DNA from: Cetorhinus maximus
Lineage: Eukaryota
Length of the DNA stretch: 64,000 nt
Reading direction: 5' to 3'
Assembly: GCF_964194155.1 (NCBI RefSeq)
Contig: NC_135899.1
Location: 25,110,001-25,174,000, forward strand
The notes beneath the pieces were generated by a model. That model had not been told where the DNA came from. It made no database searches and saw nothing but the letters and a program-made list of their open reading frames with translations. Both the position numbers and the translations under genes were made by a program. How positions within the stretch are numbered: position 1 is the first letter of the stretch; the number at the start of each line of letters is the position of its first letter. Below, piece by piece: positions 21,433-21,810 of the stretch.

Positions 21433-21810
21433 TCACTTGGAGCTGGTGTACTTGGTGACCGCCTTGGTGCCCTCGGAGACGGCGTGCTTGGCCAGCTCGC
21501 CGGGCACCAGCAGGCGGACGGCGGTTTGGATCTCCCGGGACGACATGGTGTGGCGCCGGCTGTAATGGGCCAGACGGGAGGCCTCGCAGGCGATGCGGTC
21601 GAAGACGTCGTTGACGAACGAGTTCATGATGCTCATGGCCTTGGAGGAGATGCCCGTGTCCGGGTGAACTTGCTTCAGCACCTTGTACACGTAGATGCCG
21701 TAGCTCTCCCGGCGGGCTTTCCTGCGCTTCTTGTCGCCCTTGTGGTGCGACTTGGAAGCTGCCTTTTTGGCGCCCTTCTTGGCGATCACCTTGGTCCCGC
21801 TCTCCGGCAT
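21433..21810 (-). CDS. H2B: Histone H2B, divergent variant (125 aa)
   Basis: [50 protein letters not shown] at 21810 (the ORF track starts at the upstream GTG); intronless. Confidence 0.97.

Follow-up and report, generated by a model that had tools for sequence, protein, structure and literature searches.

A 64-kb stretch of Cetorhinus maximus DNA (the window, to which coordinates given without a contig refer) encodes a histone H2B, designated variant A, that is conserved across elasmobranchs, occurs as a single copy, is separate from H2B.K and is embedded in the MHC; on balance the evidence leans towards this protein being a germline histone that gives rise to looser nucleosomes. The narrower conclusion, that variant A is an independent and conserved H2B variant, can be drawn with considerable confidence. 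The proteins are already present in NCBI, automatically named 'H2B 7-like' or 'late H2B.L4-like', and the genes are found in a published MHC table; it is their recognition as a variant that appears to be new. Searches of the open-access literature, with subscription papers, older dogfish testis biochemistry and HistoneDB outside their range, returned no description of shark H2B variants; PMC13525598 makes no mention of shark, skate, cartilaginous or MHC, and PMC12867764 and PMC10210626 gave nothing of relevance. The available text of PMC8857922 presents the known animal H2B variants as few in number and nearly all mammalian. A core that is fixed across sharks and rays would provide an independent case for identifying the H2B residues that are altered repeatedly in germline chromatin, and variant A supplies specific substitutions (E71D, G75C, N84S and S87H) that are relevant to nucleosome behaviour.

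Gene anatomy and conservation of variant A

An open reading frame check of the window identified variant A as an intact, intronless ORF of 125 amino acids on the reverse strand (21433-21810; protein P0001). The gene displays the sequence features of a replication-dependent histone gene. It is followed by a perfect 16-base histone 3′ stem-loop (GGCTCTTTTCAGAGCC; 21385-21400, reverse strand), which was detected by motif search and by Rfam, the Histone3 model scoring 24.3 bits (E 0.0045) and thus falling below its gathering score of 34; indeed the Rfam scan of the whole window gave no match at gathering score. The window contains three stem-loop matches, one for each histone gene, compared with 0.39 expected, and none of 100 shuffled sequences reached three. 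Beyond the stem-loop lies a purine-rich element (21357-21365, reverse strand) that resembles the HDE consensus and is a putative U7 site, while AATAAA and ATTAAA are absent from the ~730 bases downstream of the gene. Inspection of the promoter, on the same strand, revealed a TATA-like box (21878-21885), the octamer ATTTGCAT (21895-21902), presumably the H2B promoter element, and two CCAAT boxes (21932-21936 and 21959-21963). The sequence-only reading of this locus had described an intronless, stem-looped H2B with a cysteine and had quoted its core and tail, with which the ORF and motif search agree.

Variant A differs from shark canonical H2B at 11 positions within residues 37-123 (A38G, I41V, M45L, I69V, E71D, G75C, N84S, K85R, S87H, I89M and L102V), and the variant-specific changes are concentrated at residues 69-89 and fixed across orthologues. 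The human numbering of the changes given in the earlier reading was correct, and eight of its nine core changes are genuine; the ninth, T90S, is the usual shark residue, S90 being present in 12 of 14 chondrichthyan canonical rows. Canonical H2B is multi-copy, homogenised and housed in the main histone cluster, which in C. maximus is on contig C32. Although variant A resembles the canonical shark protein in gene anatomy and shares ~81% protein identity with it, the gene is single-copy on the MHC chromosome, away from the main cluster, has 11 fixed core changes and belongs to its own elasmobranch clade. The other matches in a protein-level search of the genome were at most 83% identical to variant A and mostly on C32 (best 149 of 1787), and nothing above 84% identity was found at the DNA level (best 40 of 1089).

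Protein searches and cluster look-ups recovered 21 variant A orthologues, comprising that of C. maximus and those of 19 named species of sharks, rays and skates; P0138, an alternative splice form, was left out of the tree and of the orthologue counts. V69, C75, S/T84, H87 and V102 are present in all 21 proteins, M89 and D71 in 19 (D71 being replaced by E in the other two) and R85 in 18. Residues 37-123 are identical in all 13 shark proteins and contain between one and six changes in the eight batoid (ray and skate) proteins. It could be argued that variant A is a decaying stray canonical copy, given its position outside the main cluster and the presence of at least 60 other dispersed H2B copies in this genome, and the sequence-only reading had itself named decay, or a lack of C75 conservation in orthologues, as what would tell against its interpretation. 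C75, however, has been kept in every orthologue, and the invariant shark cores, together with the same residues recurring in all 21 proteins, rule out decay. Against this explanation, which has practically no probability, are also the conserved gene order in a ray, the intact promoter and stem-loop, and a composition with GC3 of 0.92 and CpG observed/expected of 0.94. The pN/pS values of variant A (0.080/0.367 against canonical H2B and 0.083/0.402 against its sister variant B) compare paralogues and are descriptive only.

Relation to H2B.K

From its core residues variant A had been proposed to be either a chondrichthyan relative of H2B.K or an independent, undescribed variant. The first proposal finds no support, as C. 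maximus contains a separate, intron-split H2B.K that differs from variant A at 13 core positions; the second is supported by the phylogeny, by the existence of this separate gene and by the conservation described above. The true H2B.K is located on contig C4 at 177.30 Mb (C4:177301955-177304701; L043:8956-9078 and L040:1369-1605) and has two exons, an intron of ~2.4 kb separating ...VLKQ from VHPD.... The sequence encoded by the second exon shares 99-100% identity with proteins of other sharks and rays and 94-97% with those annotated as 'H2B type 2-K1' in fish and amphibians, and the gene encodes T75, N84 and V94. A V94 motif search of the genome gave three matches; one of these, on C26 (L041), was rejected as H2B.K, being a broken canonical-type copy. 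A CHGN-family gene lies 0.23 Mb and ABCF exons 0.35 Mb from the C4 gene, neighbours that are probably CHPF2 and ABCF2. The ABCF exons on C4 and on C22, the contig that carries the window, were found by motif search, a PF12848 search giving a locus on C20 only. Human H2B.K is described in the available text of PMC9526256 as forming a readthrough with ABCF2; on C4 H2B.K and the ABCF exons are in opposite orientation, which differs from that arrangement. If sharks and rays share an H2B.K split by an intron, the origin of this variant would shift from bony vertebrates, as given in the available text of PMC8857922, to jawed vertebrates. An 84-residue piece in the shark H2B.K cluster (P0357) comes from a 418-base contig catalogued as Salmonella and is likely contamination in that record.

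The resemblance that led to the first proposal is in part real. H2B.K (H2BK1; Raman et al. 2022, PMC8857922) resembles variant A, in the portions of that source used here, in V69, in changes near L2 and, in the human protein, in C75 and S84. The earlier statement that H2B.K has V69, C75 and S84 is thus borne out at positions 75 and 84 for the human protein, and fails there for zebrafish and coelacanth, which have T75, N84, K85 and V94 (PMC8857922 supplement). In the supplementary sequences consulted from that study C75 occurs in one of 14 mammalian H2B.K proteins, the human one, and in one of the eight vertebrate H2B.K proteins of Data S3, and V69 is also found in Xenopus canonical and sea-urchin H2B. 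Variant A lacks the intron that splits the histone-fold coding sequence of H2B.K, its ORF being continuous; it lies among MHC genes on C22 rather than near ABCF2; it has a stem-loop in place of a poly(A) signal; and it has none of the T75, N84, T90 and V94 of non-mammalian H2B.K.

These relationships were explored in a tree of 88 rows and 92 columns (LG+G4) that was built without mammalian H2B.K or H2B.1 rows and in which H2B.K labels derive from names and similarity rather than from introns. The 21 variant A orthologues form one clade with support of 99/93, although the bootstrap was unsettled and the outgroup was not monophyletic. Two sister variants, B and C, join variant A in a larger clade (97/82); a 92/88 branch separates this clade, together with canonical H2B, from H2B.K, again from 92 columns and with an unsettled bootstrap. 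Forcing variant A together with H2B.K cost 26.7 log-likelihood units, for which the AU test on these 92 columns was borderline (p = 0.0505). Hence the histone-fold phylogeny suggested by the earlier reading separates the two in its best tree, but does not reject their union. It could be argued from this AU value, from the occurrence of V69 in 10 and R85 in four of 14 H2B.K rows, and from the intronless H2B.K retrocopies that mammals possess (PMC8857922, available text), that variant A is an intronless offshoot of H2B.K, either an old retrocopy or a sister. It should be emphasized, however, that variant A lacks the T75, T90 and V94 of shark H2B.K and is further from it (13 core differences) than from canonical H2B (11), that the best tree places it with B and C, and that its tail is of the canonical type and its gene has an octamer and a stem-loop, features that a copy retroposed from a polyadenylated gene with an intron would have had to regain. 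Such an origin is very improbable.

A second 'Elephant Shark_H2B' in Data S3 of PMC8857922, labelled only 'H2B' in the part of the file consulted, bears on the age of the family. By eye it shares V69, D71 and C75 with variant A but differs from it in having N84, K85 and L102 and the B-like I81 and Q87. This protein, compared by eye and outside the tree, probably represents an earlier-diverging member of the A/B/C family, and the shared V69, D71 and C75 hint that the family arose before chimaeras diverged; it may figure in a tree in supplementary figure S9 of the same paper. A PDB search returned canonical-type H2B and H2B.1, and no match was from a shark.

The MHC locus and a second histone cluster

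Variant A lies between two H3 genes that encode the substitution Q125H, one at 17206-17616 on the forward strand (stem-loop 17676-17691) and one at 26276-26686 on the reverse strand (stem-loop 26201-26216), both detected by ORF analysis, stem-loop search and Rfam. The H3 genes are held in the arms of an inverted repeat of ~1 kb and ~99% identity (16742-17728, forward; 26168-27154, reverse). Upstream, a C-type lectin domain ORF or exon (2295-2714, forward) serves as a synteny marker; it matches the mannose-receptor-like gene upstream of the equivalent sawfish trio and is probably part of such a gene. A TRIM gene with RING, B-box and PRY/SPRY domains (34960-41261, forward) lies downstream of the H3-H2B-H3 trio; the portion of the sawfish MHC gene table available (PMC10751288) lists no TRIM gene next to the trio. 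On C22 the order is an ABCF exon at 24.59 Mb, variant A at 25.13 Mb, and MHC class I exons at 26.3-31.9 Mb, such that variant A is flanked on one side by the ABCF exon, at a distance of 0.54 Mb, and on the other by the class I exons, which begin 1.2 Mb away; 37 of 39 class I exon matches in the genome are on this contig. The sawfish table, in the part of the PMC10751288 supplement consulted, lists a mannose-receptor-like gene (+), H3 (+), a 378-bp 'late H2B.L4-like' gene (−) and H3 (−), with abcf1 0.52 Mb further on, and spacings within the trio are 4.5 and 4.3 kb in sawfish compared with 4.2 and 4.8 kb in C. maximus. This shared order shows that the trio is older than the shark-ray split. That divergence dates to more than 250 million years ago. 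The remainder of the window includes long low-complexity tandem arrays (42400-52200 and 58260-59780), many LINE reverse-transcriptase fragments (for example 4400-6608 and 54830-58187) and a 52-base near-perfect hairpin (24343-24394) with a weak, sub-threshold miRNA-family score, which is probably a small inverted repeat.

The H3 Q125H motif has five matches in the C. maximus genome, compared with 158 for Q125, and the exact protein is found on 16 contigs of the collection, which makes H3 Q125H itself a candidate variant of elasmobranchs; a search of the open-access literature gave no paper that pairs 'Q125H' with 'histone H3'. A further Q125H gene (C22:2826203) is part of a second cluster at C22:2.82-2.84 Mb (L046:6539-6928, L047:1185-2895 and L048:1013-4109), in which all genes have stem-loop-like 3′ elements. 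This cluster also contains an H2A that is identical on 13 contigs, H2B-B, an odd, Arg/Gly-rich H1 of 222 amino acids, and H2B-C, which has a longer tail. H2B-B has cysteines at positions 75 and 124, and C75 is present in 14 of 17 B rows. The cluster is mirrored in sawfish at 4.24-4.26 Mb in the available part of the PMC10751288 table. A record of equal length carries a B or C protein in the case of 13 of the 20 other variant A orthologues, which suggests that the linkage has been retained. A variant histone set in the elasmobranch MHC is thus present in published gene tables and undiscussed in the main text; that of PMC10751288 makes no mention of histone.

Together these genes comprise H2B variants A, B and C (C75 being present in two of the three), an H2A with a fixed tail, H3 Q125H and the odd H1. 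We tentatively propose, as a possibility that falls short of an even prospect, that the MHC of cartilaginous fish houses an additional set of stem-loop histones, complete and of ancient origin, that builds germline-specific nucleosomes, a counterpart of mammalian TH2A/TH2B/H3t/H1t that is shark-ray-wide, arose independently and is convergent at the H2B-H4 positions 75 and 84. In humans HIST1 adjoins the MHC, and H2B.1 is linked to the MHC-side histone cluster. It might be considered, given the MHC linkage in shark and sawfish, that the shark genes (H2B A, B and C, H2A, H3 Q125H and the odd H1) are orthologous to the mammalian MHC-linked germline set (H2B.1/TH2B, TH2A and H1t) and descend with it from the jawed-vertebrate ancestor. 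Indeed the eutherian germline protein H2B.1 (TH2B/TSH2B; H2BC1) resembles variant A in its intronless, stem-looped gene and near-canonical fold, and some H2B.1 proteins are changed at the same sites, the human protein having S75 and S84 and that of guinea pig, compared by eye, C75. Most H2B.1 proteins, however, retain G75 and N84, and among 357 H2B proteins all 50 with C75 came from cartilaginous fish (best 120 of 8000 per search). In contrast to H2B.1, which the available text of PMC8857922 dates to eutherians, variant A has V69, D71, R85, H87, M89 and V102, its own tail and flanking H3 genes. Orthology of the two sets is thus improbable.

Proposed role of variant A

Variant A may have arisen from a canonical-type lineage by duplication in early cartilaginous fish, its sisters B and C being on the same chromosome, and the fact that human H2B.K and H2B.1 are also changed at residues 75 and 84 would represent convergence, which would explain why the sequence-only reading perceived a likeness to H2B.K. 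The gene anatomy predicts a non-polyadenylated, U7-processed mRNA and a protein deposited in dividing cells. By analogy with human structures, residues 69-89 would form the stretch of H2B that contacts H4. In the human nucleosome H4 R92 lies opposite H2B E76, Y83 of H2B is stacked against H4 Y88 (PMC6212774), and R79 faces H4 K91/R92 (PMC11514470), as described in the parts of these studies consulted. Likewise, mutation of D68, F70 or E71 raises Nap1-mediated dimer exchange (PMC10657182, available text), and N84S in TSH2B loses a water-mediated bond to H4 R78, whereas G75S causes no substantial structural change (PMC3976059, available text). N84S in variant A is predicted to remove the same bond, and E71D with G75C may retune the surface near E76/H4 R92, easing exchange of the H2A-H2B dimer. 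As the G75S change in TSH2B is without substantial structural effect, C75 may be structurally mild, and because variant A keeps E76, R79 and Y83 a mild effect is expected overall. Variant A would thus still function as a histone within nucleosomes, its contact with H4 being mildly weakened and its L2 reshaped, and it would probably loosen nucleosomes, a property also attributed to mammalian TH2B, although R85 and H87 may instead create further contacts with DNA. C75 could conceivably also have a redox role. The weakest step is use in germ cells, which would probably be spermatogonia or spermatocytes prior to protamine exchange.

Dispersed gene copies provide an indirect hint of where the MHC histones are transcribed, since retroposition requires germline or early-embryo transcription (following the logic in the available text of PMC8857922). 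The C75 motif has ten matches in the C. maximus genome: variant A, the parental B gene and eight dispersed copies. These eight and a further copy (L034) are 95.6-98.5% identical to B and 80.5-84.6% identical to A, and none of the nine (L032-L034 and L054-L059) has a stem-loop, the copies ending before or within it. Their identity to B and the missing stem-loop indicate that they are recent retrocopies of B; none is closer to A, and variant A retrocopies were not found among them. The canonical G75 motif has 267 matches, of which 60 are dispersed on C1-C31, giving ~0.3 dispersed copies per clustered canonical gene compared with eight for B using the same kind of motif pattern. Each of the two dispersed copies of H3 Q125H includes 3′ UTR sequence of the H3 genes in the window, while at most three of the 158 Q125 matches are dispersed.

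It could be argued that variant A, while the same independent and conserved variant, is a minor replication-coupled isoform of somatic or embryonic cells without germline restriction, for example a haematopoietic histone co-regulated with its MHC neighbourhood. Such an isoform would be consistent with the full S-phase type promoter and stem-loop, and with a near-invariant, housekeeping-like core, mammalian germline variants evolving faster (PMC8857922, available text). Variant A, unlike its sister B, also has no retrocopy, but this zero fits the canonical rate and is uninformative for A. Against a somatic or embryonic isoform, the flanking H3 genes and B exceed canonical genes in dispersed copies per gene, and positions 75 and 84 are also changed in human H2B.1 and human H2B.K, with C75 in guinea pig H2B.1. 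We consider this explanation the less likely of the two, although it retains appreciable weight, and favour a germline role for variant A. As a separate observation, the dispersed copies indicate that non-polyadenylated histone mRNAs are retroposed in this genome with a strong bias towards H2B, at least 60 canonical H2B copies being dispersed compared with at most three of Q125 H3.
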